Shown in pieces: positions 15,316-36,461 of a stretch of 64,000 bases of DNA. How positions within the stretch are numbered: the stretch's first letter is position 1; the number at the start of each line of letters is the position of its first letter. The notes under the pieces were generated by a model, which was not told the DNA's origin, searched no databases, and saw only the letters and a list, made by a program, of their open reading frames with translations. Source of the DNA: an uncultured Candidatus Rokubacteria bacterium (GTDB taxonomy: Bacteria; Methylomirabilota; Methylomirabilia; Rokubacteriales; DASRDR01); contig CAVPSB010000014.1 of NCBI GenBank assembly GCA_963708025.1, positions 503,271 to 567,270 of the forward strand. Reading direction: 5' to 3'. The position numbers and the translations under genes are program-made.

Positions 15316-15328
15316 AGGGGGACGTCAC

Positions 15329-15742: not shown

Positions 15743-15760
15743 CGGAGGGAGCGACGGATC

Positions 15761-16087: not shown

Positions 16088-16116
16088 GAGAAGCCAGCGG
16101 GCCCGCGCACGCCAAT

Positions 16117-16138
16117 GACCGGGCCTCGAGGCCCGGTC
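16117..16138. other. Perfect 22-bp palindrome between iscA and hscB
   Basis: GACCGGGCCTCGAGGCCCGGTC. Confidence 0.6.
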
Positions 16139-16154
16139 TGATTTTGGGGAGACG

Positions 16155-19059: not shown

Positions 19060-19277
19060 CGAGCATGGGACTCAAGTGGGGCGAGGCCGAGGACATCGCG
19101 ATCGAGCTCGCGGAGAAGTTCCCCGATCTGGATCCGCTGACTGTCCGGTTCACCGACCTCTACCGGTGGGTGACCGAGCTGTCCGGCTTCGACGACGACC
19201 CGAAGGCGTCGAGCGAGGGGAAGCTGGAGGCGATTCAGATGAGATGGCTCGAGGAATACCGGGCGTCGCGGGAGTGA
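19056..19277 (+). CDS. iscX: Fe-S assembly protein IscX
   Basis: LKW..AEDIAIEL...DPLTVRFTDL...LEAIQMRWLEE. Confidence 0.93.
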   Translation: MTSMGLKWGEAEDIAIELAEKFPDLDPLTVRFTDLYRWVTELSGFDDDPKASSEGKLEAIQMRWLEEYRASRE

Positions 19278-19337
19278 CGCGCCGTGCCGATTACCTTCGC
19301 ATCCCGGCGTCGTTCGGACGGCCTTCAGCCTTCGGGG

Positions 19338-19420
19338 GCGGCGCCCATCCTCGGCGTACCAGGGCGTACGCCTCCGGTGGGCGCCGCTCTGCGTCCTTGG
19401 GCTGCTCGGTTCTCGGCCCG
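19338..19420. repeat. Nested palindromic repeat (family C); partial inverted copy at 20067-20101
   Basis: GCGGCGCCCA..GGCGTAC cagggc GTACGCC..TGGGCGCCGC; ctgcgtcctt...ctcggttctcggcccg recurs inverted. Confidence 0.65.
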
Positions 19421-19436
19421 GCGCGGTACCCTCCGC

Positions 19437-19694
19437 CTACCAGGTGACGACGGTGTCGGCGGCGAAGATCAGATCCAGCAGACGGCCATGATCGATCGCT
19501 GGGTAGGCGGAGAGCGAGTCGCCGTTGCCATCGGCGAGACGGAAGACCTCGCCGGCCAGTGGCTCGGACAGCACCGCGGCGTCCTGCAGCAGGACGATCG
19601 AGAGCCGATTGTCCGGGTCCCGGGCTTGCGCCGCGAGCACGTCGAGGGCCGTGCGGTTACCGGGATCCTTGAGCAGGTGGAGGATGTGGGGCAC
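19437..19694 (-). CDS. DsrH/TusB-like sulfur relay protein
   Basis: ILHLL, IVLLQDAA, IDHGRLLDLIFAADTVVTW. Confidence 0.7.
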   Translation of the reverse strand: MPHILHLLKDPGNRTALDVLAAQARDPDNRLSIVLLQDAAVLSEPLAGEVFRLADGNGDSLSAYPAIDHGRLLDLIFAADTVVTW

Positions 19695-19703
19695 GGCCGA
19701 GGC

Positions 19704-20060
19704 CTAGAAGACCAGGACGCGGTCGCTGCGGGCGATGAGACCCGCCAGCTCGTCGGTGGAGATGGGGACGACCTCGGGTCCGCCGGCGTTCCAGTCCCCG
19801 TGGTCCGGGATGGCCGAGCGCTCGACGTGGAAGACCTGGCCGAGCTTCTTCAGGGTGGCGACGTGCTTCAGCGTGTCCTCGCCGTCGATGCAGTCCTCGA
19901 TCTCGGGGCTCAGGATCCTGGCCGCCGGGCCGAGGAGCACGAGGGTCACGTCGTTCTCCCCAGCCAGGATCCCGAGGGCGATGCGGACGGCCTCGTTGGC
20001 GCGGTGGGACGTCTCGGGATCGACGGAGACGACGACCAGGACGTGCTCGGCCGCCGACGT
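19704..20060 (-). CDS. DsrF/TusC-like protein, no canonical start
   Basis: HVLVVVSVDPETSHRANEAVRIALGILAG...ISTDELAGLIARSDRVLVF; ACG at 20060; in frame with the upstream TAG. Confidence 0.65.
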   Translation of the reverse strand, partial: TSAAEHVLVVVSVDPETSHRANEAVRIALGILAGENDVTLVLLGPAARILSPEIEDCIDGEDTLKHVATLKKLGQVFHVERSAIPDHGDWNAGGPEVVPISTDELAGLIARSDRVLVF

Positions 20061-20114
20061 CCGTCGCGGGCCGAGAACCGAGGGCGAGTCGAAGGACGCA
20101 GGGTCTCGGCGCGG

Positions 20115-20447
20115 CTAGTTCAGGGCGACGAAGCGGTCGCAGCCGTTGATCAAATCCGTGAGGACGACCAGGCCGCAGTAGGTGGCCTTCTCGGTGATCG
20201 GGAGGCGGCGGCGCTGGCAGCCGTAGGCGCAGACGAAGAGCTTGGCGCCCCGGCGGCCCAGCTCGAGGACCCGATCGTCGTCGATGTTGGCCACGCCGTC
20301 GTCCACGAGGTAGAGGTAGAGACCGAGCCCGCGGTCGAGCGCCGCCCGGCTGAGCCCCAGGCAGGTCTCGAGGTTGGGGTGTTCGGGCCGGGTGGAGAGC
20401 AGGATCCCGAGCTTGCGGCCGCGCAGATCGCCTCGGGGTCGAGTCAC
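20115..20447 (-). CDS. DsrE/TusD-like sulfur relay protein
   Basis: KLGILLSTRP, LYLVDDGV, LFVCAYGCQRR, GLVVLTDLINGCDRFVALN. Confidence 0.8.
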   Translation of the reverse strand: MTRPRGDLRGRKLGILLSTRPEHPNLETCLGLSRAALDRGLGLYLYLVDDGVANIDDDRVLELGRRGAKLFVCAYGCQRRRLPITEKATYCGLVVLTDLINGCDRFVALN

Positions 20448-20453
20448 GTGATC

Positions 20454-20482
20454 ACGCTAACACCCGCCCTGGACGGTGTCAA
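20454..20482 (-). promoter_or_regulatory. Sigma-70 promoter; leaderless dsrE-like transcript
   Basis: TTGACA-17 nt-TAGCGT, then 6 nt to the GTG start, no RBS. Confidence 0.6.
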
Positions 20483-20515
20483 CGCGAGCCGTTCGTTTTC
20501 GATGAGGTGAGCGCC

Positions 20516-21676
20516 ATGCGTCGCGTCTATCTGGATCACAACGCGTCGACCGCGGTGCACCCCGAGGTGCTGGCGGCGATGCTCCCGTACTTCGCCGAGC
20601 AATACGGCAATCCCTCGAGCATCCACGGCTTCGGCCGTGAGGCCCGCGATGCCGTCGAGGCGGCCCGGGAAGAGATCGCCGGCTTCCTCGGCGTCGCCCC
20701 GGAGGAGTTCGTCTTCACCTCGGGAGGCACCGAATCGGACAACCTGGCGATCAAGGGCGTCGCCCACGGGCGCGGCCGGGGCCACGTGATCACGTCCCAG
20801 GTCGAGCACCACGCGGCCCTGAGAAGCTGTCAGGCGCTGGAGCGGGCCGGCTACACGGTCACCTACCTGCCGGTGGATGGCACCGGCATGGTGGATCCCG
20901 ACGACCTCCGGCGAGCCATCCGACCCGACACGATCCTCATCACGATCATGTACGCCAACAGCGAGGTGGGGACGATCATGCCGGTCACCGAGATCGGACG
21001 GATCGCCCGGGAGCACGGCATCCCGTTTCACACCGACGCCGTCCAGGCCTTCGGGAAGATCCCGTTCAGAGTGCGCGACCTCGGCGTCAGCCTCCTGTCG
21101 TGCTCGTCCCACAAGATCTACGGACCCAAGGGACTGGGCGGCCTCTACATCGCGAAGGGGACGAAGATGGTGTCGATCCAGCACGGCGGCGACCACGAGC
21201 GGCGCCGCCGGGCGGGGACGGAGAACGTGCCGGCGATCGTCGGGTTCGGCAAGGCGGTGGCGGTGCGGGCGCGCGACATGCAGGAAGAGGCCGAGCGCGT
21301 CCGCGGGCTGCGGGACCGACTGTGGGAGAGTGTCCGCGCGAGCGTGGCGGATGTGCGGCTCAACGGGCATCCCATGGAGCGGCTGCCCGGGACGCTGAAC
21401 ATGAGCTTCCGCGGTCTCGAGGCCGAGTCGCTGATCCTGGCGCTGGACCTCAAGGGGATCGGGGCCTCGGCCGGCTCGGCGTGCACCTCGGGGAGCCTCG
21501 AGCCGTCATACGTGGTGACCGCGATGGGGGTGCCGACCGAGTGGGCGCTCGGCGCGCTGCGGTGCTCGCTCGGCCGCAGCACGAGCGCCGCGGACATCGA
21601 CTACGTGCTGGAGGTGTTGCCGGCGGCGGTGGGGCGCATACGCGCCATGTCGCCGACCGCGGCGGCCACGGCGTGA
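20516..21676 (+). CDS. nifS: Second cysteine desulfurase (NifS/IscS-type)
   Basis: VYLDHNAST, YGNPSSIH, SSHKIYGPKG, RRAGTENV, SAGSACTSGSLEPSYV. Confidence 0.92.
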   Translation: MRRVYLDHNASTAVHPEVLAAMLPYFAEQYGNPSSIHGFGREARDAVEAAREEIAGFLGVAPEEFVFTSGGTESDNLAIKGVAHGRGRGHVITSQVEHHAALRSCQALERAGYTVTYLPVDGTGMVDPDDLRRAIRPDTILITIMYANSEVGTIMPVTEIGRIAREHGIPFHTDAVQAFGKIPFRVRDLGVSLLSCSSHKIYGPKGLGGLYIAKGTKMVSIQHGGDHERRRRAGTENVPAIVGFGKAVAVRARDMQEEAERVRGLRDRLWESVRASVADVRLNGHPMERLPGTLNMSFRGLEAESLILALDLKGIGASAGSACTSGSLEPSYVVTAMGVPTEWALGALRCSLGRSTSAADIDYVLEVLPAAVGRIRAMSPTAAATA

Positions 21677-22062
21677 ACTACAGCGAGACGCTGATCGAGC
21701 ACTTCCGGGCGCCCCGCAACGTCGGGATGATGCGCAACGCCGACGCGGTCGGAGAGAGCCAGGACCCCAGCTGCGGGGACCTGGCCCGCTTCTACCTGCG
21801 GGTCCTCGACGGCCGCATCGCCGAGGCGCGCTTCCAGACGTATGGCTGCGGGCCGTCCATCGCGGCCTCGAGCCTGGCCACCGAGCTGGTCCAGGGCCGC
21901 GCGGTCGGCGAGCTGGCCGAGCTGACCCCCCTGGCGGTGGAGCGGGCCCTGGGCGGGCTGCCCGACGAGCGCCGTCACGCGGCCAGCGTGGTGGTGGCCG
22001 CGCTGCACGCGGCGGCGACCCAGTACCGGGCGGCGCAATCCGGGGAGGCCGGTCGTGCTTGA
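21673..22062 (+). CDS. IscU/NifU-N-like scaffold paralogue lacking the third Cys
   Basis: [41 protein letters not shown]. Confidence 0.85.
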
Positions 22063-22717
22063 CGCGATCCGCCGCGACATCGCGGCGGCGATGGCCCGGG
22101 ACCCGGCGGCGCGCAGCCGGCTCGAGGTGGTGCTCTGCTACCCGGGCGTCCACGCGCTCGCGCTCCACCGGCTCGCCCACCGCCTCTGGGGGACCGGCTG
22201 GTACGTGAGCGCCCGCCTGGTCTCCCACCTGTCGCGCTTCCTCACCGGCATCGAGATCCACCCGGCGGCTCGCCTCGGCGAGGGCGTCTTCATCGACCAC
22301 GGCATGGGCGTGGTGATCGGCGAGACCGCGGAGGTGGCCGAGAACGTCACCCTGTACCAGGGCGTGACGCTGGGGGGCACCAGCCTCAAGCGGGAAAAGC
22401 GCCATCCGACGCTGGAGCGCGACGTGGTGGTGGGAACCGGTGCGGCGGTCATGGGGGCGATCACCGTGGGGGAGGGGACGCGCATCGGCGCGGGGTCGGT
22501 CGTGGTCCGGGATGTCCCGCCCAACTCGGTGGTGGTCGGGGTTCCGGGCAAGGTCATCTCGCGGGACGGCAAGCAGATGCGGGAGTCGGTCGATCTCGAG
22601 CACGCCGATCTGCCGGATCCGCTGGCCCGGACGATCGAGCAGATGCTGGACCGCATCCACGCGCTGGAGCTCGAGGTCGATACGCTGCGGAGATCTTCAC
22701 GGGAGGTGAGCCGGTGA
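22055..22717 (+). CDS. cysE: Serine O-acetyltransferase
   Basis: [35 protein letters not shown], hexapeptide repeats. Confidence 0.95.
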
Positions 22718-22902
22718 CGTTCAAGGACGCGATGACGGTCAAGGAGGCGTCGAGCTACCTGGCGATGGACGAAGGCACGGTGGCCCGAATGGCCGAGGCC
22801 CGCCAGATCCCGGCTGTCAAGGTCGAGGAGCAGTGGGTCTTCTCGCGCAAGTCGCTTCAGAAGTGGCAGCGCCTCCGCGAGCGCCGGAGCTGGCGCGCCT
22901 AG
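22714..22902 (+). CDS. Small excisionase-like HTH protein
   Basis: [35 protein letters not shown]. Confidence 0.8.
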
Positions 22903-22984
22903 CTCTTCGACACGGCCACCAGCCGTCGCGCGATCCGGTGGGCCCCGGGCCAGGCAGCCCCGCACCGGTGGCGGGCGAATCCCG

Positions 22985-24163
22985 ATGAGTAGTCGGGCGA
23001 TCCTCCACGTCGACATGGACGCGTTCTACGCCGCCGTGGAGCAGCGGGATCGCCCCGAGCTCCGCGGCCAACCGGTCGTGGTCGGCGCCGACCCGCGGGG
23101 GCGCGGGGTGGTGTCGGCGGCGTCCTACGAGGCCCGGCGCTACGGCATCCACTCCGCCATGCCGATCGGTCAGGCATATCGCCTCTGCCCCCACGCCGCC
23201 TATCTTCCGGTCGACATGTCGAAGTACGTCCGCGTCTCCGCCGAGATCATGGCCATTCTGGGAGCGTTCACCCCGCTGGTGGAGCCGCTGTCCCTCGACG
23301 AGGCCTTCCTCGACGTCACCGGCTCCCGGTCCCTCTTCGGGTCTTCGGTCGAGATCGCGCGCGCGATCAAGACACGCATCCGGTCCGAGGTCGAGCTGAC
23401 GGCGTCAGCGGGGGTGGCGCCGAACAAGTTCCTCGCCAAGGTCGCCTCCGACCTCCGGAAGCCCGACGGGCTGGTCGAGGTCCGGCCGGGCGAGGAGGCC
23501 GCCTTCCTGCGCGAGCTGCCGATCTCCCGGCTGTGGGGGGTCGGGCCGGCGGCGGAGGCGGCGCTGGCCCGGCTCGGCGCCCGGACGATCGGCGAGCTGG
23601 CCGCGCTGGCCCCCCGGATCCTGGTCGAGCGCCTCGGCTCCTCCGGCGCCCACCTCCAGGCGCTGGCCCGCGGCGAGGACGATCGGCCGGTCGTCCCCTG
23701 GGAGGACCCGAAGTCGGTGGGCGCGGAGGAGACCTTCGAGCGCGACACCCGGGACCTGGCCCGGCTTCGCCGGACCCTGCTCGGGCAGGCCGATCGCGTG
23801 GCGGCCGAGCTGCGGGGGCTGGGGCTCCGGGGTCGGACGGTCACGCTGAAGGTCCGGTTCGCCGACTTCCAGACGCTGACCCGTCGCGCCAGCGCCCCGG
23901 TGCCGCTCGCCGACGGGGGGGAGATCTTCCGGTCGGCGTGGGAGACCCTGGTGCGCCTCCCCCGCCCGCAGCCGATCCGACTGATCGGGCTCTCGGTGTC
24001 CGGGCTCCAAAAGGACGCCGACCCTCGTCAGCTCCCGCTGTTCGGCCCGGGGGGGCGCGCCGAGCAGGTGGGACGGCTGTCCGACGAGCTGCGGGCGCGC
24101 TTCGGTCCCGGCGCCATTCGCCGCGCCAGCCTTCTTGTCCCGCCCCGGCCCGAGCCCCTATAA
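22985..24163 (+). CDS. dinB: DNA polymerase IV
   Basis: ILHVDMDAFYAAVEQRD, SYEARRYG, LSLDEAFLD, LAKVASD..KPDG. Confidence 0.95.
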   Translation: MSSRAILHVDMDAFYAAVEQRDRPELRGQPVVVGADPRGRGVVSAASYEARRYGIHSAMPIGQAYRLCPHAAYLPVDMSKYVRVSAEIMAILGAFTPLVEPLSLDEAFLDVTGSRSLFGSSVEIARAIKTRIRSEVELTASAGVAPNKFLAKVASDLRKPDGLVEVRPGEEAAFLRELPISRLWGVGPAAEAALARLGARTIGELAALAPRILVERLGSSGAHLQALARGEDDRPVVPWEDPKSVGAEETFERDTRDLARLRRTLLGQADRVAAELRGLGLRGRTVTLKVRFADFQTLTRRASAPVPLADGGEIFRSAWETLVRLPRPQPIRLIGLSVSGLQKDADPRQLPLFGPGGRAEQVGRLSDELRARFGPGAIRRASLLVPPRPEPL

Positions 24164-24236
24164 TCCTGACAAGCACGGCGCGCGTCCGACATCGACCGGC
24201 ACCGGAACCCACCACCCAGTCAGAGGAGGTCGAGCA

Positions 24237-25443
24237 ATGAGGCTCAGATTGCTCCTGGCATGCCTCGCGGTTGTCTTCGTGTCCTCCATCGCCCCGAGCG
24301 GGGTCTGGGCCCAGGCGAGCGTTCCTGGCGTCAGCGACACCGAGGTCGTGCTGGGGCTCACCACGCCGCTGTCGGGACCGGCCGCGGTCTGGGGCACGAC
24401 GGCCCTGGCGGCCGAGGCCTGGGCCAAGCACGTCAACGAGCAGGGTGGCGTCCACGGCCGCAAGATCAAGACGGTCCTGAAGGACGACGGCTACAATCCG
24501 GGGCGGGCGGTGGCCAACGTCGGCGAGCTGAAGGATTCGGTGTTCGCCCTCGTCGGCCTGCTGGGGACCGCCATCCTGAACGCGAACAAGGACAACGTCG
24601 CCGAGGCCAAGCTTCCCACCATCTGGCCGTACGGCAACCCCCAGATCTTCGCCAAGCAGCCGAGGGAGAAGCTCCGCGACGGTCTTCATGGTCTACCCGG
24701 ACTACGCTGGACGAGGGCGAGTTCCTGGTCCAGCAGGCGGCCAAGCTGGAAGGCGCCAAGAAGATCGCCGTCTTCTTCCAGAACGACGACTACGGCAAGG
24801 GGGGCCTGGACGGCGTGAAGCGCGGCCTCAAGGGCCTGAGCGGGGTCAGCCTGACCGGCGAGGTGTCGTACGAGGTCGCCGACCGCGAGCTGGGGACCCA
24901 CGCGCTCAAGATCAAGGACTCGGGCGCCGACACGCGTGATCTTCTATTCCACGGCGCCGCACTGCGCCGGCCTGATCAAGGAGATGGCGAAGGCCGGCTA
25001 TCGCCCGAAGATCTTCGCGTCCTTCCCCCTGGGCGACCGGCACACCATGTTCCGGCTGCTCGGTGATCTCTGGGAAGGGGCGTACTACAACGTCACCGGC
25101 GCCGTCCCCGGCGAGCCCGACGCCGACCGGGCGGTCGAGGTCCTGCTCAAGCAGGATCCGAAGCTCAAGGGGCGGGAGAGCTTCGCCCTGGCCGGGGCGA
25201 CGGCGATGATCGCCACCGTGGAAGGGCTCAAGCGGGCCGGCCGGAACCTCACGCGGGACGGCTTCGTCGAGGCCATGGAGACGATCAAGGACTGGACGCC
25301 GGAGAAGCTGACGGCGCCGATCACCTGGGGACCGAACCGCCGGCACGGCCTGAACGCCGTCCGCCTGATGCAGGCCAAGAAGGCGGCCGACGCCTCGTTC
25401 GCGACCATCACCGGGCTACCAGATCTTCCCGCCGCAGTTCTGA
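24237..25443 (+). CDS. LIV-type ABC substrate-binding protein, frameshifted
   Basis: GVSDTEVVLG..PLSGPAA, GGVHGRKI, DDGYNP, QNDDYGKGG; indels near 24680, 24710, 24935 and 25415. Confidence 0.85.
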
Positions 25444-25476
25444 CGGCGGAGGAGGGCTTCCCCCCGACGATCGGCG

Positions 25477-26230
25477 ATGGGCGCCCTGCTCGAGGTCCGC
25501 GGCCTGTCGCTCGCCTTCGGGGGGATCCAGGCGCTGTCCGGCGTCGGGGTGACCATCGCGGAAGGGGAGACCCTCGCGGTGATCGGCCCCAACGGCTCCG
25601 GCAAGACCTCGCTCTTCAACTGCATCACGGGGATCTACCGTCCCACCGACGGTGCCATCACGCTGGCGGGGGAGAGCCTGCTGGGGCTCTCGCCCGACGC
25701 GGTCACCCGGCGGGGTGTCGCCCGCACGTTCCAGAACCTGCGCCTGTTCCACAACCTGTCGGTGCTCGACAACCTGCTCGTCGGCCGGCACCTGCACTTC
25801 GAGCGGAGCCTCCTCCACGCCCTGCTCCGCCGGCGCGGCGAGGAGATCCGACATCGCCGGCACTGCGAGGAGATCGTCGAGTTCCTGAACCTGGAGCCGT
25901 ACCGCAAGAGCCGCGTGGCCGACTGCCCCTACGGCGTCCAGAAGCGGGTCGAGCTGGGCCGGGCGCTGGCCACCGAGCCACGGCTCCTGCTCCTCGACGA
26001 GCCGGTGTCGGGTCTGACTGCCGAGGAGAAGGAAGAGTTCGCCTACTGGATCCACGAGATCCGCGGGCGTTTCGGCATCACGGTCCTGCTGGTCGAGCAC
26101 GACCTGCGCATCGCCTCGCGGCTCGCCAGTCGGATGGTCGCCCTCGACCACGGGGTGAAGATCGCGGAGGGGACGCCCGACGGAGGTCCAGCGCCACCCC
26201 GACGTGATCAGGGCGTACCTCGGGGCGTGA
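25477..26230 (+). CDS. ABC ATP-binding protein (LivG-like), indel near 26180
   Basis: GPNGSGKT, ARTFQN, LLLLDEP, VEHD, DVIRAYLG. Confidence 0.88.
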
Positions 26231-27049
26231 TCGCGGCCAGGCCGGACGCCTGCCGCGTGCGTCCCCGAGGCGGCCCGCCTCCCGTCACCAGCATCGAGAC
26301 GCTGTACTTCGACCGGATCTACGCCCTGTTCGGCGTGTCGCTGGAGGTGCCCGAGCGCCAGATCTTCGCGGTGCTCGGCCCGAACGGCGCCGGCAAGACG
26401 ACGCTGCTGCGGACGGTCGCCGGGCTCCTCAAGGACCAGCCGAAGAAGGGGACGATCGAGTTCGGCGGGCCGGCGCATCGAGCGGCGATCGCCGGAGCCG
26501 ATCGCCAACCTGGGGATCGTCTACGTGCCGGAGGACCGGGGACTGTTCCGGGAGCTGACGGTGGCCGAGAACCTCGATCTGGGCCTGTGGGGTCGGCGGG
26601 ACGCCGCCGTCGGGCGATGACCTCGAGTTCGTCTACGGGATGTTCCCGATCCTGCGGGAGCGCGCGCGCCAGCAGGCCGAGACGCTGTCGGGCGGAGAGC
26701 AGCAGATGCTGGCGCTCGGGCGGGCCATGCTCCGGCGACCCCGGCTCCTGATGCTGGACGAGCCCTCGCTCGGCCTCGCCCCCCAGGTGGCCCGCGCGGT
26801 CTTCGAGGCGCTCGGTCACGATCAGCGGGCGGGGCACCACGATCCTGCTCGTCGAGCAGAACGCGCGCCTGGCGCTCGGGGTGGCCCACCAGCGTGGCGA
26901 TCCTGGAGGCGGGCCGCGTGGTGCTCCAGGGCACGCCGAAGGACCTCGAGGAGCACGAGGACGTCCGCGAGGCGTACCTGGGGCTGGGTGTCACCGAGAG
27001 CGCCTCGCCGCGGGGCTGGCGGCTCTACCGGAAACGGAGGCGATGGTGA
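26227..27049 (+). CDS. ABC ATP-binding protein (LivF-like), frameshifted
   Basis: [43 protein letters not shown]. Confidence 0.85.
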
Positions 27050-28868
27050 TGACACCGACGGAGACGAGGGCCCGGACGCTCCCCGAGCTGTTCTTCGACC
27101 AGGTCCGGCAGCGCGGGGACGCGCTGGCCCTCCGCTACAAGGCGTACGGCATCTGGCACCGGGTGTCGTGGACGCGACTACGGGGAGTGAGGTGCGGAGG
27201 GTGGCCGGCGGCCTCCTGGCCTTCGGGCTCCGCCCCGCAGGAGAACGTGGCGGTGCTGGGCGACAACCGGCCGGAGTGGCTCTACTGCCACCTCGGGATC
27301 ATGACCGCCGGCGGTCGCACGTGCGGCATCTACGCCACCTCGTCGGCCGAGCAGGTGACGCTACCTCTTGAACCACTCCGAGGCCAGAATCCTGTTCCTG
27401 GAGAACGAGGAGCAGCTCGAGAAGGTGCTCACCGTCGTCGGCGAGACCCGGCGTCGAGCGGCTCGTCATCTGGGACGCCAAGGGACTGTGGGGCTTCGCC
27501 GACCTCGGGTCATCTTCTTCGACGACTTCGTCAAGGAGGGCCAGCTCTACCTCGACTCCCACCCGGGCGCCTTCGACGCGCGCCTGCCAGGCCATCTCGC
27601 CCGACGACACCGCCATGATCATCTACACCTCGGGCACGACCGGGCCGCCGAAGGGCGCGATGCTCGCCCACCGGAACATCCTGTGGGTGCTGGAAGCCAC
27701 CCTCCAGGCCATCCCGTGGCGGCCGGACGACGAGGTGATCTCGTACCTCCCCTTCGCCCACATCTTCGAGAACTTCACCTCGGTCTTCGACGCGATCCGT
27801 CTGGGCTACGTGGTCAACTTCGTCGAGAGCCCGGAGACCCTGTTCCAGAACCTCATGGAGCTGTCGCCGACCTACTTCGCCGGGCCGCCGCGGATCTGGG
27901 AGAAGCTGGCCTCGACGGTGGAGCTGCGGATGGCCGACTCCACCGTGTTCAAGCGCACCCTCTACCGGTTGGCCGTCTCGGTCGGCCGGCGCCACGCCCG
28001 GGCATTGCACACCGGTCGGATCCCCGGGTGGCTCCGGGCCGCCTACGGCCTGGCCTACGGCACCGTCCTCTACCCCCTCAAGCGGCGGCTCGGCTTCGAG
28101 CGGACCCGCATCGCGATCTCGGCGGCGGCGCCGGCGGCGCCGGAGCTGTTCGAGTACTTCCACGCCCTGGGCGTGCCGCTCCTGGAGGTCTACGGTCAGA
28201 CCGAATCCACCGGGATCATCTCCGCCAACCGGCCGGGACGGGAGCGGGTGGGGACGGTGGGGGAGGCGATCCCCGGGGTGGAGGTGGCGCTGGCCGATGA
28301 CGGCGAGATCCTGACCCGGGGGCCTCACGTCTTCCAGGGCTACTTCAAGGATCCCGAGCTGACCGCCCAGACGGTCGACCGGGACGGCTGGCTCCACACC
28401 GGGGACGTCGGCGCCTGGGAAGACGGCTACCTCAAGATCCTCGACCGCAAGAAGGACATCATCATCACCGCCGGCGGGAAGAACATCACGCCCGCCTACG
28501 TCGAGAACAAGCTGAAGTTCAGCCCGTACATCCAGGACGCGGTGGTGATCGGCGACCGGCGCAAGTACGTGGTCGCCCTGATCCTGATCGACGAGGACAA
28601 CGTCACCAAGTTCGCCCAGGACCACCGCATCCCCTTCAGCACCTTTGCCGACCTGACCCAGAACCCCGAGGTCCAGCGGCTGGTCGGCCAGGAGGTCGAC
28701 CGTGTGAACCGGACGCTCTCGCAGGTGGAGAGCGTCAAGAAGTTCGCCCTCCTGCCGCGCCGCTTCTACGAGGAGGAGGGCGACGTGACCCCGACCAAGA
28801 AGGTCAAGCGCCGGAACCTCGAGCAGCGGTATGCGGAGGTGATCGAGTCGCTGTACCGGGAGCGGTAG
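27049..28868 (+). CDS. Long-chain acyl-CoA synthetase (AMP-binding), frameshifted N-terminus
   Basis: [54 protein letters not shown]. Confidence 0.9.
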
Positions 28869-28874
28869 CCCGAC

Positions 28875-29857
28875 GTGGACCTGGTCGAGACCTACCGGGA
28901 GGACCTGGCGTTCGCGCGGAAGCCGCTGGCGCGCGCCCTGCTGGCGGCGCTGGTCGCCGCCCTCCTGGTGCTGCCCTGGTACGCGCAGGGCTCCTGGCTG
29001 GTCCGGCTGAGCCTGATCTACCTCTACGCGATCGGCGTCATGGGCCAGAACTTGCTGATCGGCTACACGGGGCTGATCTCGTTCGGGCAGGCCGGCTTCC
29101 TCGCCATCGGCGCCTACGCCTTCGGCCACCTCCGGCTCCTCGGCGTGCCGTTCCTGCTCGCGCTGGCCGGGGCCGGGGTCGCCGCGGGGCTGGCCGGCGC
29201 CCTCGTCGGCTTCCCGTCGCTCCGGCTCAAGGGCCCGTATCTGGCCATCGCCACCCTCGGCTTCGGCGTCGCGGTCTACCAGGTGTTCGCCAACTCGGAG
29301 GTCCTGTCGGGCGGTCGCTCGGGACTCGCCATCGCCAAGCTCCAGCCGCCGTTCGGGTGGCGGCGCGAGGTCTACGTCTACTACGTCTACCTGGGCCTCC
29401 TGCTCGTCTTCACCGCCGCCACCTACAACCTGGTCTCCTCTTACGTCGGCCGCGCCTTCGTCGCGATCCGGGACAGCGACATCGCCGCCGAGGTCATGGG
29501 GGTCAACCTGACCCGCTACAAGCTCCTGGCCTTCGCGATCTCGTCGCTCTACACCGGGCGTCCACGGCGCTCTCTTCGCCCAGTTCCTCGGCCACCTGGA
29601 GCCCCAGACCTTCAACGTCGGCGAGTCCCTCACGATGTTCGTCGCGGTCATCGTCGGCGGGCGTCGCCTCGGTCGAGGGGTCGATCTTCGGCGCCGCCTT
29701 CGTCATCCTGGTGCCGAGCCTGCTCTCCGACTACCGCTGGTTCGTACCCGTGCTCTTCGGCGTCACCATCCTGGTCGTGCTGATCTTCGAGCCGCTCGGG
29801 CTGGCCGGCCGCTGGCTCAAGACCCGCCTCTACTTCCGGCTCTGGCCCTTCCGGTAG
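28875..29857 (+). CDS. ABC permease (LivM-like), frameshifted
   Basis: GYTGLISFGQAGF, LRLKGPYLAIATLGF, GRAFVAIRDS. Confidence 0.88.
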
Positions 29858-29867
29858 AGCGCCGGCC

Positions 29868-30752
29868 ATGGACAAGCTCCTCCAGTACACGCTGACCGGG
29901 CTCTCGGCGGGCAGCCTGTACGCCCTGGTGGCGCTCGGGGTGGTGCTGATCTACCGCTCGACCCGGGTCCTGAACTTCGCCCACGGGGACGTGGCGACCT
30001 TCGGGACGTTCGTCGCGTTCGCCCTGGTCACCCAGGGCTACCCGTTCGCGGTGGCGTTCCCGGCCGCGCTCCTCGCCGGCGCCGGCGTGGCCGTCGGCTT
30101 CTACTTCGCCGTCCTGGTGCCGGCCCAGCGGCAGGGGGCCAACCTGCTGGGACAGGTGATCCTGACCCTCGGGCTGGCCCTCATCTTCCAGGGACTGATC
30201 GTCTACTGGTGGGGCGCCGAGCCGGACCGGTTTCCGTTCCCGCTCTCCGACAGCCGAGACCTGGAAGCTCGGGCCCGTCTTCGTGAGCGAGCTGTCCCTG
30301 GGCACGCTGGCGGCCGGGCTGGTCGGCCAGCCTCCTCCTGTACCTGCTCGTCCAGAAGACGCGGCTCGGGCTGGCCATGCGGGCGACCTCCGAGAACCTT
30401 CCCGGCCGCCCAGACGCTCGGCATCCCGACCCGGCGCATCCTCGCCTTCGCGTGGGGCGTCGCCTCCGCGCTGGCCGTCGTGGCGGGCATCTTCCTGGCC
30501 CCGGCGCTCCTGCTGGACCCGTTCTTCATGCTCGACCCGTTCCTCAAGGGGTTCGCCGCCGCCGTCCTGGGCGGGCTCAACAGCCTGCCGGGCGCGGTCC
30601 TGGGCGGCCTGGTCCTCGGCGTGGCCGAGAGCCTGGCCGGGGCGTACGTGACGATCCAGTTCAAGAACACGCTGGCCTTCGTCATCATCATCGTGGTGCT
30701 CCTGGTCCGCCCCGAGGGCCTCCTGGGTCGCGAATTCAAGGAACGGGTCTAG
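29868..30752 (+). CDS. ABC permease (LivH-like), frameshifted
   Basis: YALVALGVVLIY...NFAHG, KGFAAAVLGG, RPEGLLG. Confidence 0.88.
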   Translation: MDKLLQYTLTGLSAGSLYALVALGVVLIYRSTRVLNFAHGDVATFGTFVAFALVTQGYPFAVAFPAALLAGAGVAVGFYFAVLVPAQRQGANLLGQVILTLGLALIFQGLIVYWWGAEPDRFPFPLSDSRDLEARARLRERAVPGHAGGRAGRPASSCTCSSRRRGSGWPCGRPPRTFPAAQTLGIPTRRILAFAWGVASALAVVAGIFLAPALLLDPFFMLDPFLKGFAAAVLGGLNSLPGAVLGGLVLGVAESLAGAYVTIQFKNTLAFVIIIVVLLVRPEGLLGREFKERV

Positions 30753-30786
30753 TGCGGGTCCGACCATCTGGGGTAGAATCGCCCTG

Positions 30787-31542
30787 ATGGAGCGCCCGAT
30801 CGCCTACGACAAGCTCGCCCGCGAGGACCGGTTCGTCCGGATGCGGGCCCGCCGCATCGCCGAGCTGCGCACGGAGCAGGGGCTCCCGCCGATGCCGGAC
30901 ATGAGCTCGCGGGAGTCGATCCGGGAGCGCGTCCACGGCATCCTGGTCGGCGAGCTCCAGGCCATGGAAGGGGCCGGCAGGACGGTCTACGACTTCCCGG
31001 ACGCGCCCTGGGAGTTCACGATGGACATGGCGCGGCAGGTGTGGGACGAGTCGCGGCACGTCGAGATCTACATCCGGCTGCTCGAGCATCTGGGCGGCTA
31101 CGTCGGCGAGTTCCCGGAAAGCACCATCCTCTGGCGATGCGCCTGCGCGGAGGACGCCGCGGCCCGGGTGGCGGGGGTCAACCGCGGGCTCGAAGGGCTG
31201 GCCTGTGACGTCTTCGCCCAGCTGATCGAGATCGCCCGCCGGCTCCCCGATCCGACGATCGCCCAGGCGGTCGACTACGTGCTGGCCGACGAGATCACCC
31301 ACGTGCGGATGGGCTCGTACTGGCTGAACAAGCTGACCGAGGGCGATCCCGAGCGGCGCCGCCGGGCGGTCGAGTTCCAGGAGTCGATCGACGACCGGTT
31401 CAACCTGGGCGGCATGCGCCGGGTGGGGGCCGCCGACGAGGTGCCCATCGCGATCTCGACCGAGGTCCGCCGGCTGGCGGGGTTCACCGACGAGGAGATC
31501 CAGCGCCTCGTCAAGGCCACGCAGCGCAGTCCCGTCTACTGA
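30787..31542 (+). CDS. Ferritin-like diiron protein (DUF455-like)
   Basis: GELQAME...WDESRH...LEGLACD...DEITH; TAGAAT 7 nt upstream of the ATG. Confidence 0.8.
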   Translation: MERPIAYDKLAREDRFVRMRARRIAELRTEQGLPPMPDMSSRESIRERVHGILVGELQAMEGAGRTVYDFPDAPWEFTMDMARQVWDESRHVEIYIRLLEHLGGYVGEFPESTILWRCACAEDAAARVAGVNRGLEGLACDVFAQLIEIARRLPDPTIAQAVDYVLADEITHVRMGSYWLNKLTEGDPERRRRAVEFQESIDDRFNLGGMRRVGAADEVPIAISTEVRRLAGFTDEEIQRLVKATQRSPVY

Positions 31543-31604
31543 CGCGGGGCGCGAACCCCGCCCTCGACCGCCGCCATGCGCCCGGCCTGCCGCCTGACCC
31601 GCGC

Positions 31605-32192
31605 GTGACCGCCCGCGACCCCGCCCGCGAGCTGGCCGGCTGGCTCGGCGTCGAGGCCACCGCCCGGCTCGTCCGCCGCTACCGCTACGCCGAGGAGCGG
31701 CTGATGCGGACCCTGGCCGGGTGGATCGCCCTGACGCCGGAGGTGCCCGCGAAGCTCCTGCTCGGTCGCCACGTCTGGGACTGCGCCCAGCACGCCGACC
31801 TGTGGGGCAAGCGGCTGCCCGAGCTGCGGGCTCCCGCCCAGGTCTCGGAGCCGCCGAGCGCCGACTTCGTCCGCTTCATGGATGCCCTGGAGAACCGGGA
31901 GGCGTGGGGTGAGACCCTGGAGCGCCTGACCGGTGTCTATCGCGTGCTGAAGCCCCACCTGGCCGAGGCCTACGCCCGCCACCTGGAGCGGGCCAACCCC
32001 GTTTACGAGCCGCCGACCCGGCGGATCCTCGAGCGATGCCTCGCGGAGGAGCGCCAGCACATCACCGACGGGGAGCGGGTTCTGGCGGCCCTGGCCGACA
32101 CGGACGCGCGCCGGCACCGGGTGGCGGCGTGGCAGGCCGAGCTAGGGCGCCTGCTGACCGCGGCCGGCGGCGTCACCGGGGACGTCGAGTGA
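31605..32192 (+). CDS. Ferritin-like protein with degenerate metal ligands
   Basis: AEERLMR..WIALTPE..K..LGRHVWDCAQHAD...EERQH. Confidence 0.7.
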   Translation: MTARDPARELAGWLGVEATARLVRRYRYAEERLMRTLAGWIALTPEVPAKLLLGRHVWDCAQHADLWGKRLPELRAPAQVSEPPSADFVRFMDALENREAWGETLERLTGVYRVLKPHLAEAYARHLERANPVYEPPTRRILERCLAEERQHITDGERVLAALADTDARRHRVAAWQAELGRLLTAAGGVTGDVE

Positions 32193-32239
32193 CATCCATT
32201 CTGGATCAACCCCGTGAGCGCCGTGCCGAGCAGGCGGGG

Positions 32240-32375
32240 TGGCGGCTCCTCTCCCCTCCCCCCTCGGGGTGGGAGGGGTCGCCACGGGCCGAAGGCCGTC
32301 GAACGGTGCGGGGGGCCCCGCCACCGGAGGGGTGCGACGTCCCGAGGGGCTGCAGTCCCGAGGCGTCGCGGCGAG
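32240..32375. repeat. Intergenic repeat related to family A modules
   Basis: ctcccctccccc..ggggtgggagggg and gacgtcccgaggggctgcagtcccgaggcgtc, resembling the long-unit insert at 34.3-34.7 kb. Confidence 0.5.
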
Positions 32376-32379
32376 ACGA

Positions 32380-32691
32380 ATGACTGAGCTGGAGGAGGCG
32401 GTCGAGGCGCATGCCCGCCGCGTCGTGGCGGGCGACGCGAACACCGGGGCCGATCTGGCGCCGAGCGCGGAGATCGAGCCCCCGGACCTCTTCGAGAGGC
32501 TCCTCGCCGGCGGCTTTCGCGACTTCGATCTGGTCGCCCACGCGCGGATCGGCGCCTATCACATCGTCAAGACCCGGTACCGCGGTCCGACGACGCTGGT
32601 CGTCCAGGAGCGGTGGGTACGCGGCGGCGACGGACACTGGCGGGTTCACGAGGCCGTGCTCGTCCGGGTCGCCTCCGGGGACGCCGGGTAG
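32380..32691 (+). CDS. Small hypothetical protein, possibly NTF2/SnoaL-like
   Basis: ELEEAVEAHARRVVAGD...VQERWVRGGDGHWRV; stop overlaps the accC-like start. Confidence 0.6.
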   Translation: MTELEEAVEAHARRVVAGDANTGADLAPSAEIEPPDLFERLLAGGFRDFDLVAHARIGAYHIVKTRYRGPTTLVVQERWVRGGDGHWRVHEAVLVRVASGDAG

Positions 32692-34076
32692 TGTTCCGGA
32701 CGGTGCTGGTCGCCAACCGGGGTGAGATCGCGGTCCGGATCATCCGGGCCTGCCGGGCCCTCGGCGTTCGCGCGGTGGCCGTCTACTCGGACGCCGACGC
32801 CGGCGCGATCCACGTCCGGGCCGCGGACCAGGCCGTTCACCTGGGGCCGGCGCCGGCGGCTCAGAGCTACCTGGCCATCGAGCGGGTGCTGGACGCGGCA
32901 CGGGCTTCCGGGGCCGAGGCCATCCATCCGGGGTACGGGTTTCTCTCCGAGAACTGGCGCTTCGCCGACGCCTGCCGGGCGGCCGGCCTGGTGTTCGTGG
33001 GCCCGCCAGCCGAGGTCATCCGGGCGATGGGGGAGAAGACGGAGGCGCGGCGGCGGATGGCCGCCGCCGGCGTGCCGGTCCTGCCCGGCTCGGACGGGCC
33101 GGTGGCGGACGTCGACGAGGCGAAGTCGGTGGCGGCGGCCGTGGGGTACCCCGTGATGCTCAAGGCCGCCGCGGGCGGCGGCGGCATCGGCATGGCCCTG
33201 GTGCCGGACGCGGGCCGGCTGGAGGCCGCCTTCGGGGCGGCGCGGCGCCGGGCCGAGTCGGCCTTCGGGAACGGCGCCGTCTACGTGGAGCGGGCCCTGG
33301 AGGCGCCCCGGCACGTCGAGGTCCAGGTCCTCGCCGACGAGCACGGGATGCTCGTCCACCTTCACGAGCGGGATTGCTCGATCCAGCGTCGGCACCAGAA
33401 GCTCGTCGAGGAGAGTCCGGCCCCCGGCCTGCCCGATGGCTTGCGGGCGCGGCTCCACGACGCGGGGGTGCGGGCCGCCCGGGCGACGGACTACCGGAAC
33501 GCGGGGACGGTGGAGTTCCTCGTCGAGGGCGATGCCTTCCACTTCCTGGAGATGAACACGCGACTCCAGGTCGAGCACCCGGTCACCGAGGAGGTGACCG
33601 GCCTCGACATCGTCCAGGCCCAGCTCCGGGTCGCGGCCGGGGAGTCGCTCGGCTGGCGTCAGGCCGACATCCGGCCCCACGGAGCGGCCATCGAGTGCCG
33701 GGTCTACGCCGAGGACCCGGAGCGCGGATTCCTCCCGTCGCCGGGGACGATCACGGGGCTCGAGCTGCCCGCCGGACCGGGCATCCGCTGGGAGTGTGGC
33801 GTCGAGGCCGGCAGCGTGGTCTCCGTCCACTACGACCCGTTGCTCGCCAAGGTCATCGCCGCTGGCGCCGATCGTGCCCAGGCGATCGAGCGGCTGCGGG
33901 CGGCGCTGGCCGGCTGCCGGATCGAGGGGGTCCGGACGACGGTGCCAGTCCACCAGCGGATCCTGGCCAGCGAGGGATTCCGGAGCGGAGCCGTTCACAC
34001 GCGGTTTCTGGAGAGATCCTTGATGGGTCGAGCCGAGGGGGCCAGCCTCCCGGCCGGGAGCGAAAGGGGGCGCTGA
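32691..34076 (+). CDS. Biotin carboxylase subunit
   Basis: VLVANRGEIAVR, HPGYGFLSEN, GGGGIGM, RDCSIQRRHQK, EMNTRLQVEHPVTE. Confidence 0.95.
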   Translation: MFRTVLVANRGEIAVRIIRACRALGVRAVAVYSDADAGAIHVRAADQAVHLGPAPAAQSYLAIERVLDAARASGAEAIHPGYGFLSENWRFADACRAAGLVFVGPPAEVIRAMGEKTEARRRMAAAGVPVLPGSDGPVADVDEAKSVAAAVGYPVMLKAAAGGGGIGMALVPDAGRLEAAFGAARRRAESAFGNGAVYVERALEAPRHVEVQVLADEHGMLVHLHERDCSIQRRHQKLVEESPAPGLPDGLRARLHDAGVRAARATDYRNAGTVEFLVEGDAFHFLEMNTRLQVEHPVTEEVTGLDIVQAQLRVAAGESLGWRQADIRPHGAAIECRVYAEDPERGFLPSPGTITGLELPAGPGIRWECGVEAGSVVSVHYDPLLAKVIAAGADRAQAIERLRAALAGCRIEGVRTTVPVHQRILASEGFRSGAVHTRFLERSLMGRAEGASLPAGSERGR

Positions 34077-34080
34077 GTCG

Positions 34081-34296
34081 ATGCCGGAGGAAGTGCGAGC
34101 GCACATCACGGGGGTGGTCTTCCAGGTCGTAGCGTCGGCCGGCACCAGGGTGGGGGCAGGGGACCCGATCCTGATCCTCGAGTCGATGAAGATGGAGATC
34201 CCGGTCGAGGCGCCCCGTGCCGGGGTGGTGCAGGCGATCCGGGTCGCCGAGGGCCAGACGGTGCAGGAAGGGGACGTCGTCGCGCTCCTCGACTGA
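34081..34296 (+). CDS. Stand-alone biotin carboxyl carrier protein
   Basis: LESMKMEIPVEAP biotinylation motif. Confidence 0.93.
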   Translation: MPEEVRAHITGVVFQVVASAGTRVGAGDPILILESMKMEIPVEAPRAGVVQAIRVAEGQTVQEGDVVALLD

Positions 34297-34907
34297 GAGC
34301 GTGTGAAGAACTGGGTTCTCCGACTCCCCCTCCCCCCGGTGGCCGCCGGAGGGCGGGACGTCGCGAGGGCCGCAGGCCCGAGCCGTCCCGGCGATCCGGT
34401 CAAACGGAGGGGGGTTGGGGGGGCGGGAGGTCCGGAACCGAGGGCAGGTGCGGCGGGCAGCTCTTCCGACTCCCCCCTCCCCCCGGTGGCCGCCGGAGGG
34501 CGAGACGTCGCGAGGGCCGCAGGCCCGAGCCGTCCCGGCGATCCGGTCAAACGGAGGGGGGTTGGGGGCGGGAGGTCCGGAACCGAGGGCAGGTGCGGCG
34601 GGCAGCTCTTCCGACTCCCCCCTCCCCCCGGTGGCCGCGGAGGGCGAGACGTCGCGAGGGCCACAGGCCCGAGCCGTCCCGGCGATCCGGTCAAACGGAG
34701 GGGGTTGGGGCGGGAGGTCCGGAACCGAGGGCAGGTGCGGCGGGCAGCTCTTCCGACTCCCCCCTCCCCCCCGGTGGGTGGGGGAGGGGGGTTGGGGGGC
34801 GGGCGGAGGTCCGGAACCGAGGGCAGGTGCGGCGGGCAGCTCTTCCGACTCCCCCCTCCCCCGGTGGGTGGGGGAGGGGGGTTGGGGGGGCGGGCGGGAG
34901 GTCCCGA
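34294..34907 (+). repeat. Tandem array of family A repeat: three ~145-bp units plus two shorter units
   Basis: TCCGACTCCCCC unit starts near 34319, 34465, 34610, 34752 and 34844; constant linker ggaggtccggaaccgagggcaggtgcggcgggcagctct. Confidence 0.93.
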
Positions 34908-36461
34908 ATGTCCATGCGGGAGCTGGTCGAGGAGCTGAACCGCCGCCGCGCGCGGGTGGCCGAGCTTGGCGGAGCCGCCGCCGTCGCCCGGCAGCACGAG
35001 GCGGGCAAGCTGACGGCTCGCGAGCGGCTAGCCCTCCTGTTCGATGCCGGCAGCGTCGTCGAGCTCGGCACCCACGCGACCCACCACGCCGACCATCCGT
35101 CCATGGCCGGCCGCGAGACGCCGGCCGACGGCGTGGTCACCGGGTTCGGCCGGATCGACGGCCGGCCGGCGTGCTTCATCGCTTACGACTTCACCGTGAT
35201 GGCCGGCTCGATGGGGCGGACCGGAGAGACGAAGTGCGCGCGGGTTCGCGAGATGGCCCTGACCCAGCGCGTCCCCCTCGTCTGGCTGATCGACTCGGCC
35301 GGGGCGCGCATCCAGGAAGCCGCCGGTGGCGGCTGGTTCGCCTCCTCGGGGTACCTGTTCCGCGACGAGGTCATCCTGTCGGGGGTGGTGCCGCTCGTGG
35401 CCGCCATGATGGGGCCGGGGGTCGCCGGGACGGCCTACATCCCGGGGCTCGCCGACTTCGTCCCGATGGTCAAGGGGACGAGTCACATGGCGCTCGGCGG
35501 GCCGCCGCTGGTGAAGGCGGTCGTGGGGGAAGACGTGGACCCCGAGGAGCTGGGCGGCTCCCGCGTGCACACCGAGATCTCCGGGGTGGCCGACCTCGAG
35601 GTGGCGGACGACGCCGCCTGTCTCCAGGCCGTCAAGGACTACCTCTCCTACTTCCCGTCCTCGAACCTGGCGCCGCCGCCCGATCGGGTCACGGACGACC
35701 CGGCGGACCGCCGGGACGAGGCGCTCCTCGACGTGGTGCCGGAGAGCCCGCGGCGGGCCTACGACATGCACGGGGTGATCGAGCGGATCGTGGACCACGG
35801 GCGCTTCTTCGAGCTGAAGCCGACCTGGGCGAGGAACCTGATCGTCGGGCTGGCCCGCCTGGGCGGCCACAGCGTGGGCCTGGTGGCCAGCCAGCCGCTC
35901 CACCTGGGCGGGGCCCTCGACGTCAACGCCGCGGACAAGGCGGCCCGGTTCATCATGCTCTGCGACGCGTTCAACGTCCCGCTGGTGTTCCTGCAGGACG
36001 TGCCCGGATTCATGGTCGGCTCGAAGGTCGAGCGGGAGGGAATCATCCGTCACGGGGCGAAGATGCTGTACGCGGTGGCGGAGGCGACCGTGCCGAAGCT
36101 CACCGTGGTGGTGCGAAAGGCCTATGGCGCAGGGTACTACGTGATGTGCGGCCGCGCCTACGAGCCGGACCTGATCGTCGCCTGGCCAACCGCGGAGATC
36201 TCGGTGATGGGGCCGGAGGGCGCGGTCAACATCATCTTCCGGAAGCAGATCGGGGGGGCGGCCGACCCCGAGGGGGAGCGCCGGCGGTTGATCGAGGAGT
36301 TCCGGCGGATGATCGGTCCCTACGTCTCCGCCGGCCACGCCCACATCGACGACGTCATCGATCCCCGGGAGACGCGCCCGACGCTCATCCGCGGGCTCGA
36401 GCTGGCGCGCGGCAAGCGGGTCGAGCGGCCCTGGAAGAAGCACGGCGTGATGCCGGTCTGA
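34908..36461 (+). CDS. Acyl-CoA carboxylase carboxyltransferase (beta) subunit
   Basis: GKLTARERL, PADGVVTG, DFTVMAGSMG, DSAGARIQE, DVPGFMVG, RKAYGAG, KKHGVMPV. Confidence 0.95.
   Translation: MSMRELVEELNRRRARVAELGGAAAVARQHEAGKLTARERLALLFDAGSVVELGTHATHHADHPSMAGRETPADGVVTGFGRIDGRPACFIAYDFTVMAGSMGRTGETKCARVREMALTQRVPLVWLIDSAGARIQEAAGGGWFASSGYLFRDEVILSGVVPLVAAMMGPGVAGTAYIPGLADFVPMVKGTSHMALGGPPLVKAVVGEDVDPEELGGSRVHTEISGVADLEVADDAACLQAVKDYLSYFPSSNLAPPPDRVTDDPADRRDEALLDVVPESPRRAYDMHGVIERIVDHGRFFELKPTWARNLIVGLARLGGHSVGLVASQPLHLGGALDVNAADKAARFIMLCDAFNVPLVFLQDVPGFMVGSKVEREGIIRHGAKMLYAVAEATVPKLTVVVRKAYGAGYYVMCGRAYEPDLIVAWPTAEISVMGPEGAVNIIFRKQIGGAADPEGERRRLIEEFRRMIGPYVSAGHAHIDDVIDPRETRPTLIRGLELARGKRVERPWKKHGVMPV

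Follow-up and report, generated by a model that had tools for sequence, protein, structure and literature searches.

Gene content of the locus

The window, i.e., the whole stretch of 64,000 nt analysed here, is part of the 8.2-Mb, 49-contig assembly of an uncultured Rokubacterial genome. Its segment 24237-36461 encodes two ferritin-like proteins, designated A and B, and a small protein, S, which are preceded by a cassette of ABC transporter and acyl-CoA ligase genes and followed by the genes of a biotin carboxylase (BC), a biotin carboxyl carrier protein (BCCP) and a carboxyltransferase (CT). The analysis described below indicates that A, B and S probably form one enzyme. An earlier note on this DNA had read the segment as one CoA-dependent pathway from ABC import to carboxylation. 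All the genes that it named were found in their place on the plus strand. Its description of them as closely packed holds except between B and S (187 nt) and between BCCP and CT (611 nt, with repeats of ~145 nt inside). The features are as follows.

24135..24164, plus strand: sigma-70-type promoter match (TTGTCC-18-TATAAT) for the transporter/ligase cassette; the single match in 14.5 kb, where shuffles expect 0.4
24237..25443 (end approximate), plus strand: Liv-type periplasmic binding protein of the cassette (Peripla_BP_6, PF13458); 4 frameshifts; 84% to the intact orthologue in locus L069
25477..26227 (end approximate), plus strand: LivG-like ABC ATPase of the cassette (PF00005); 1 frameshift
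26284..27046 (aligned part), plus strand: LivF-like ABC ATPase of the cassette; 4 frameshifts
27043..28868, plus strand: FadD11-like long-chain acyl-CoA ligase of the cassette (PF00501; best hit NF038343, below its cut-off); 7 frameshifts
28875..29857, plus strand: LivM-like permease of the cassette (PF02653); 2 frameshifts
29868..30752, plus strand: LivH-like permease of the cassette (PF02653); 3 frameshifts
30774..30779, plus strand: -10 box (TAGAAT) of the core operon, from which the ATG of A is 7 nt away; predicted leaderless transcript; the FadR operator is missing in the window's family
30787..31542, plus strand: A, DUF455 ferritin-like protein (PF04305, E 1e-28), predicted catalytic diiron subunit
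31605..32192, plus strand: B, ferritin-like paralogue of A without a Pfam family, predicted structural subunit
32380..32691, plus strand: S, 103-aa protein that belongs to no known family; most relatives have it fused to B; predicted to be the third subunit
32691..34076, plus strand: stand-alone BC (NF006367, above cut-off)
34081..34296, plus strand: 71-aa BCCP with the ESMKM motif (NF004547, above cut-off)
34326..34904, no strand: GC-rich repeats of ~145 nt, at the same place as a ~170-aa gene of many relatives
34908..36461, plus strand: PccB-type CT (PF01039; best PDB hit 1vrg, E 5e-149), variable in relatives

The genome loci counted below are those of the 80 best among 287 relatives, and each of them shows the Rokubacterial gene order. 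The metagenome loci are the 77 listed of 598 stretches, for which a B-A fusion served as the query. The names on the homologues of A and B are those of Rokubacteria/Methylomirabilota.

A has a complete set of diiron ligands

The first ferritin-like protein had been credited with a full E/ExxH/E/ExxH set, and this was borne out: each of the six ligands (E56, E88 and H91 of the first ExxH motif, E136, E169 and H172 of the second) is invariant in 94/94 aligned homologues. A matched DUF455 (PF04305) with 101 bits, the gathering cut-off being 34.3, and it is conserved at 78-92% in this uncultured soil lineage. The structure model of A (pLDDT 90) resembled most closely a chain of the aldehyde-deformylating oxygenase (ADO) 5ux2 (Z 16.2, rmsd 2.9, 188 aligned residues); the Dps-like 8w1d (Z 16.0), the mini-bacterioferritin 9qq4 (Z 15.5) and the Mn catalase 1jku (Z 14.3) were further matches. 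The alignments covered 188-198 residues with enzyme-type chains (ADO, monooxygenase) and 136-145 residues with storage types. CADD, which belongs to the heme-oxygenase-like dimetal oxidases (HDO; the distinction from FDO is taken from PMC13108848), reached Z 13.1, some 3 units less than the ferritin-like chains. BoxB did not appear in the fold-search listings, which does not speak against a likeness to it. As judged from the model, the ferritin-like fold of A is beyond doubt, which cannot be said of its function. The ligand pattern suggests that A binds a 4-Glu/2-His diiron centre and activates O2.

When A, B and the profile of S were searched against the PDB sequences, no significant match was obtained. 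In the Atlas, homologues of A and those of the B-S fusion matched no clusters other than DUF455 and unnamed ones. Another, distant ferritin-like protein is encoded in the window's genome at G000 C7:27830-28486 (L004, L136), with no partner seen; it matches B weakly (E 1.5e-6) and scores below the DUF455 cut-off.

B is a ligand-poor paralogue of A

The paralogy of A and B was detected by hhalign with a probability of 97.4%. B keeps E30, H63, E149 and H152, and Cys60 and Lys116 stand for two Glu ligands, as seen in 121/121 close homologues. The degenerate CxxH motif noticed previously is thus present (C60xxH63), and a further replacement had been overlooked, namely Lys116, which hhalign aligns with Glu136 of A. 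Position 60 varies freely in distant B proteins. The B protein of the window gave no score against Pfam, and 2/33 B-type proteins had a match at E<=0.01. This ligand pattern is what a non-catalytic partner would be expected to show, and a single-metal site may still be formed.

A, B and S belong together

B directly follows A in 80/80 genome loci. Moreover, 27 of the best 150 representatives found with B were full-length B-A fusions of 408-547 aa, the source names of which include Bacteroidota and Chloroflexota. In the alignment of these fusions the ligands of the A domain are invariant or nearly so, and those of the B domain are not. The model of one such fusion (pLDDT 90, pTM 0.89) had both domains well above 90 with a low-confidence linker between them, and ADO was again the top fold match for each domain. 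The model suggests a fixed interface between the domains. Among the metagenome loci B stands beside A in 58/77, and in 26/27 of those where 2.5 kb are known on both sides. Together, the adjacency, the fusions and the fusion model support the proposal that a catalytic diiron subunit is paired with a ligand-poor paralogue.

The position of S is different from what had been claimed. The small protein had been tied to the carboxylase, and its stop does overlap the BC start (TAGTG), but S is fused to B in 60/80 loci (split in 14, unclear in 6), which ties it to B. In the closest non-Rokubacterial loci among the metagenome loci listed, the gene for the S homologue has B on one side and A on the other. 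A search of S against Pfam and NCBIfam found no family. Because A and B are adjacent in all genome loci, B-A fusions occur in other phyla and B-S fusions predominate, we consider it well supported that A, B and S are one enzyme, and a heteromeric diiron oxidative enzyme is very probable.

B was present in 19/20 and 144/159 genomes of the two Rokubacterial families (in a few of them weakly); in other genomes of the phylum it was found in 2/71, both weak. Among the metagenome loci, B-A fusions occur in sugar-catabolic clusters (L138-L143) together with GH38, an FAA hydrolase, a mandelate-racemase-like enolase, a PfkB kinase and GH3. B-A pairs are also seen at L150, L153, L154, L158 and L169, where a ~190-aa protein of no known kind follows in 4/5. 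In L154 and L169 the palindrome TGACC-N4-GGTCA precedes B.

The core operon has a predicted promoter of its own and, in a sister family, a FadR-type operator

A -10 hexamer was found within 80 nt before A in 66/68 relatives, whatever gene stands upstream. The core operon is thus predicted to be transcribed from its own promoter, separate from that of the cassette. The -10 box before A is followed by the palindrome TGAAC-N4-GTTCA in 49/68 loci. It is missing in 19/68, and 13 of these belong, by identity, to the family of the window. No locus has this palindrome before the cassette.

The exact palindrome occurs at 18 sites in five genomes of the sister family, as compared to 0 sites for the reversed pattern. 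Four of the sites precede A, four an operon of TetR, hydratase, short-chain dehydrogenase/reductase (SDR) and polyhydroxyalkanoate (PHA) genes, five a PimCD-like acyl-CoA dehydrogenase pair and two a thiolase gene; the remaining three lie at a MoxR-type ATPase, in a ribosomal-protein region and in no assigned context. The TetR protein of the sister family scored 205.7 against the Bacillus-type FadR equivalog NF053878 (cut-off 200). It was present in 35/37 sampled genomes of the sister family and in 0/21 of the window's family, which matches the distribution of the operator; it should be noted that all these operator and FadR counts come from kin genomes, which are not independent. Of the 4 closest non-Rokubacterial loci listed, 3 start with a related TetR gene and the palindrome AATGAACGTTCATT. 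Judging from the Atlas neighbours, this closest group may belong to Binatota. We take the TGAAC-N4-GTTCA motif to be like that of FadP. The accessible text of PMC5343134 describes FadP as a TetR regulator of fatty-acid degradation.

The best explanation of this distribution is that the window's family has lost both FadR and its operator. The link to acyl-CoA catabolism that had been drawn for the window thus stands indirectly, through the operator and regulon of the sister family, but not in the window's own family. An acyl-CoA or fatty-acyl substrate of A/B has somewhat better than even chances. The FadR-headed operon continues with hydratase, SDR, small protein, class III PhaC, PhaE-like and MaoC-like genes, accompanied by PhaB-like and PhaR genes (L238:6013-11513; G000 C49 ~153100-160000). 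The genome of the window has kept the hydratase and PhaC of this PHA operon, and not FadR.

The locus is a mosaic

The gene directly upstream of A was dinB in 45 of the 80 genome loci, the orthologous cassette with the ligase in 14, parts of the cassette in 6 and a paralogous Liv cassette in 9; in the other 6 it was another gene or there was too little sequence. The orthologous cassette takes the same place in both Rokubacterial families. Among the loci with 8 kb downstream (n=55), BCCP was present in 55/55, BC in 51/55 and CT in 23/55. The cassette, BC, BCCP and CT stood all together in 2/9 cassette loci with that length downstream. A genome-wide search of five genomes without the ligase at the locus found no ligase orthologue (best match <=50%, 5/5), and the same search for a CT orthologue in five genomes ended likewise (best match <=50%, 5/5). 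The proposal of one pathway from import to carboxylation was therefore not sustained. The ABC and ligase genes are best explained as a cassette in its own right for the uptake of fatty acids, which has often been lost and is absent from most relatives. The expected conservation of the A/B pair with carboxylase genes holds for BCCP and BC within Rokubacteriales, but not for CT. In the 77 metagenome loci listed, neither BC nor BCCP was detected; a distant CT is encoded in one of them, on the opposite strand.

All the components of an acyl-CoA carboxylase are nevertheless present in the window, i.e., BC, BCCP with its biotinyl lysine motif (MKM) and the PccB-type CT, the best hits of which are the beta types of propionyl-CoA carboxylase (TIGR01117 below its cut-off). 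Moreover, an orphan CT gene lies after aroQ and a sigma gene in 5/5 genomes tested and in that of the window (G000 C3:34144-35673; loci L246-L250), with no BC seen beside it. This orphan CT could serve as a partner for BC and BCCP. It is rather doubtful that the carboxylase acts directly on the product of A/B. In one lineage (L088, L110, L112, L133) a cyclohexanecarboxylate-type block of ligase, SDR, hydratase and dehydrogenase genes, all below the equivalog cut-offs, is inserted between BC and BCCP; we count this insertion in favour of the function proposed below.

The six cassette genes of the window contain 21 frameshifts, of which 20 are +1 insertions, and no in-frame stop, whereas 13 genes elsewhere in the window have 0 frameshifts. 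The boundary of the frameshifted region coincides with that of the cassette (24237-30752), and contigs of close relatives have the intact form at 8 matching places. Because nearly all the shifts are +1, no stop is in frame and relatives are intact at these places, we attribute them to long-read errors that were left unpolished in an island of low coverage which probably varies between strains; true decay of the cassette into pseudogenes is less likely.

Comparison with known systems

PaaA and PaaC of the phenylacetyl-CoA 1,2-epoxidase PaaABCE (3PVR; PMC4498308) likewise combine a catalytic diiron subunit with a structural subunit of the same fold, and S can be likened, by analogy, to PaaB, the small third subunit. 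The fold match of PaaAC to A was Z 13.4 (rmsd 3.7, 185 aligned residues). The parallel drawn earlier with PaaA/PaaC is sound as to design, but not as to family: PF05138 matches neither A nor B nor anything else in the window, and the sole match of the genome lies on contig C10. Unlike PaaA and PaaC, A and B can be recognised as paralogues that both fall within DUF455 and are often fused, and there is no PaaE reductase, PaaD, PaaG or PaaZ among the genes of the window or the recurrent neighbours.

BioE (PMC12704756) and ADO (5UX2, 4KVQ) share with A the 4-Glu/2-His ferritin-like diiron site and act on fatty-acyl substrates; the comparison of their fold and likely chemistry also draws on PMC12915131, both papers being cited for their accessible sections. 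According to the former, BioE is a homodimeric ferritin-like diiron oxygenase that cleaves acyl-CoA, models closest to ADO and is encoded in bio operons. Its ligand spacing is 27/3/69/30/3, as compared to 32/3/45/33/3 in A; the identity of A to BioE and ADO is 15-18%, and no acyl-ACP (acyl carrier protein) reductase gene lies beside A.

Within DUF455, to which A belongs, this subfamily adds the ligand-poor paralogue B and the protein S. The family is widespread, and our literature search, made in listings of open papers, found no function for it. As in the split three-component acyl-CoA carboxylases (1VRG, 1X0U), BC stands alone, the BCCP is separate (71 aa here) and the PccB-type CT is a single chain. 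Unlike them, CT is dispensable here, and AccBC and a mutase-linked CT are encoded elsewhere in the genome. As in the Bacillus-type FadR regulon, the TetR gene of the sister family heads the hydratase operon and the palindrome precedes dehydrogenase and thiolase genes. In contrast to that regulon, an uncharacterised diiron enzyme and PHA genes are included, and the regulator and operator have been lost in the window's family.

Related proteins in RiPP-like clusters

Among the 77 metagenome loci a PqqD gene, i.e., one encoding a recognition element (RRE) of peptides that are made ribosomally and undergo post-translational modification (RiPP), was found in 24 and an HprK-like kinase gene in 12. 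In 24/24 of the PqqD loci listed there was a precursor, the leader of which has the pattern YxxPxI and the core Trp-Trp. In many metagenome loci a single B is accompanied by two to four paralogues of A. A quick tree placed the RiPP-linked A proteins in a clade of their own (99), and the window's A in another clade (99), of 36 rows. The precursors have 35-60 aa, and the clusters often also encode an Asn-synthase, a flavoprotein decarboxylase or a nucleotidyltransferase (L147:5749-5928, L156:3127-3291, L165:7753-7935, L180:2615-2785, L187:7662-7826, L198:1808-1951 and others of L138-L214). In the accessible main text of a related LPP paper (PMC13381572) the terms ferritin, DUF455 and diiron do not occur.

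Proposed function and its alternatives

We propose that A, B and S form one O2-dependent ferritin-like diiron enzyme in which A would be catalytic and B and S would stabilise it. A may be supplied with electrons by a ferredoxin or a reductase whose gene lies elsewhere, and may hydroxylate or cleave an acyl chain, as BioE or ADO do. The substrate would be an acyl-CoA that ordinary beta-oxidation cannot process. The core operon would be transcribed from its own promoter together with the split BC and BCCP. In the sister family FadR would come off its operator in the presence of acyl-CoA, so that the operon is switched on at the same time as the genes for the dehydrogenase, hydratase, thiolase and PHA. 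The partner of BC and BCCP would be either the CT of the window or the orphan CT elsewhere, and they would carboxylate short or branched acyl-CoA end products, which need not be the direct product of A/B. Every chemical step of this scheme is inferred. We give about an even chance to the reading as a whole, in which a heteromeric DUF455 diiron oxygenase, PaaAC-like but unrelated to PaaAC, acts on acyl-CoA within a fatty-acid catabolic regulon and is encoded in a mosaic locus.

Several observations weigh against this proposal. ADO, the Dps-like protein, the mini-bacterioferritin and the beta chain of toluene monooxygenase are tied within Z 1 as fold matches of A, so that the fold does not pick a function, and Foldseek found no match at E<=0.001 with either the A or the B-A fusion model. 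The interface evidence comes from the model of one distant natural fusion, calculated without controls, and not from the window's own pair. One A locus with ample flanks is without B, and the fusion query favours loci with B. The core operon contains no reductase or ferredoxin gene. The linkage within Rokubacteriales is partly plain synteny, as dinB, cysE and rpoD also stay put, and the metagenome loci are free of BC and BCCP, as noted above. The genome of the window has neither the operator nor FadR, which makes the regulatory clue one borrowed from relatives. Finally, since a distant subfamily appears, from its gene neighbourhoods, to sit with Trp-Trp RiPP precursors and RRE, the A/B scaffold need not act on CoA esters.

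The one-operon pathway of the earlier note, in which an acid would be imported, ligated to CoA and oxidised by A/B and the product carboxylated, draws some support from the common direction of all the genes, the long-chain type of the ligase and the recurrence of the same cassette at the same place in both families, with other Liv-type cassettes there in nine more loci. It is nonetheless unlikely, as dinB abuts A in most loci, all the parts are together in 2/9, genome-wide searches detected no orthologue of the ligase or of CT in 5/5 genomes each, the predicted promoters are separate, and the operator lies before A and not before the cassette. The Dps-like, mini-bacterioferritin and Mn catalase matches of A, together with the position of the operon after hscA-fdx-iscS-iscU-cysE-dinB in most relatives, would also fit a heteromer handling iron or peroxide, i.e., a ferroxidase, a Mn-catalase-like enzyme or one repairing iron centres, with the carboxylase as a mere neighbour. 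The longer alignments with enzyme-type than with storage chains, the FadR-type operator and regulon, which point to acyl-CoA, and the contexts of the mapped non-Rokubacterial loci, which are other than isc, make such a role quite improbable.

The scarcity of CT beside the constant BCCP and nearly constant BC, its absence genome-wide in 5/5 genomes and the sister subfamily with RRE and precursor peptides led us to consider that A/B/S may modify a protein- or carrier-bound group, for which BC and BCCP would supply carboxybiotin without a carboxyltransferase. We regard this as very improbable: the orphan CT offers an ordinary partner in all five genomes and in that of the window, the RiPP-linked A proteins are a separate clade, the window's operon has no RRE or precursor, and the closest non-Rokubacterial A/B/S loci listed are without BC or BCCP. 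That A/B might be a BioE-like source of pimeloyl-CoA for biotin synthesis, near a biotin enzyme, is suggested by the common closeness of BioE and A to ADO among the models (PMC12704756, accessible sections), but the ligand spacing differs and BioE is a homodimer encoded in bio operons. A role in biotin synthesis was rejected because no bioB scored above the cut-off in 5/5 genomes, the window's included, and we see hardly any room for it.

A broader generalisation, to which we give little credence, is that DUF455 proteins with a ligand-poor paralogue are independently evolved heteromeric diiron oxygenases, of which the branch with S would perform an acyl-CoA step with BC/BCCP even without CT and the other would oxidise Trp-Trp RiPP precursors. 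If the acyl-CoA proposal is true, the diiron architecture of a catalytic plus a structural subunit would have arisen one more time, and the lipid breakdown of an abundant uncultured soil lineage would include a new oxidative step. The RiPP-linked scaffold would bring ferritin-like diiron enzymes into peptide maturation. In practical terms, A alone may be inactive without B and S, and the FadR regulon points to acyl-CoA as the class of substrates.

Other features of the window

RNA runs checked for the locus gave only small shares (0.06-0.09), the sequences being contigs. The plasmid search gave 3 weak matches, and the one examined sits among transposases. An isc region lies at 14089-24163, with two cysteine desulfurase genes, two IscU-like genes, hscA, ferredoxin and iscX-like genes and, running on the opposite strand, small DsrE-like genes, and then cysE and dinB; downstream of the locus a sigma-70 gene is found on the other strand (all these names are from translations). 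The ~170-aa gene that many relatives have between BCCP and CT, in place of the GC-rich repeats, has no NCBIfam match. An element of comparable kind, C-rich/G-rich, separates B from S (32206-32330).

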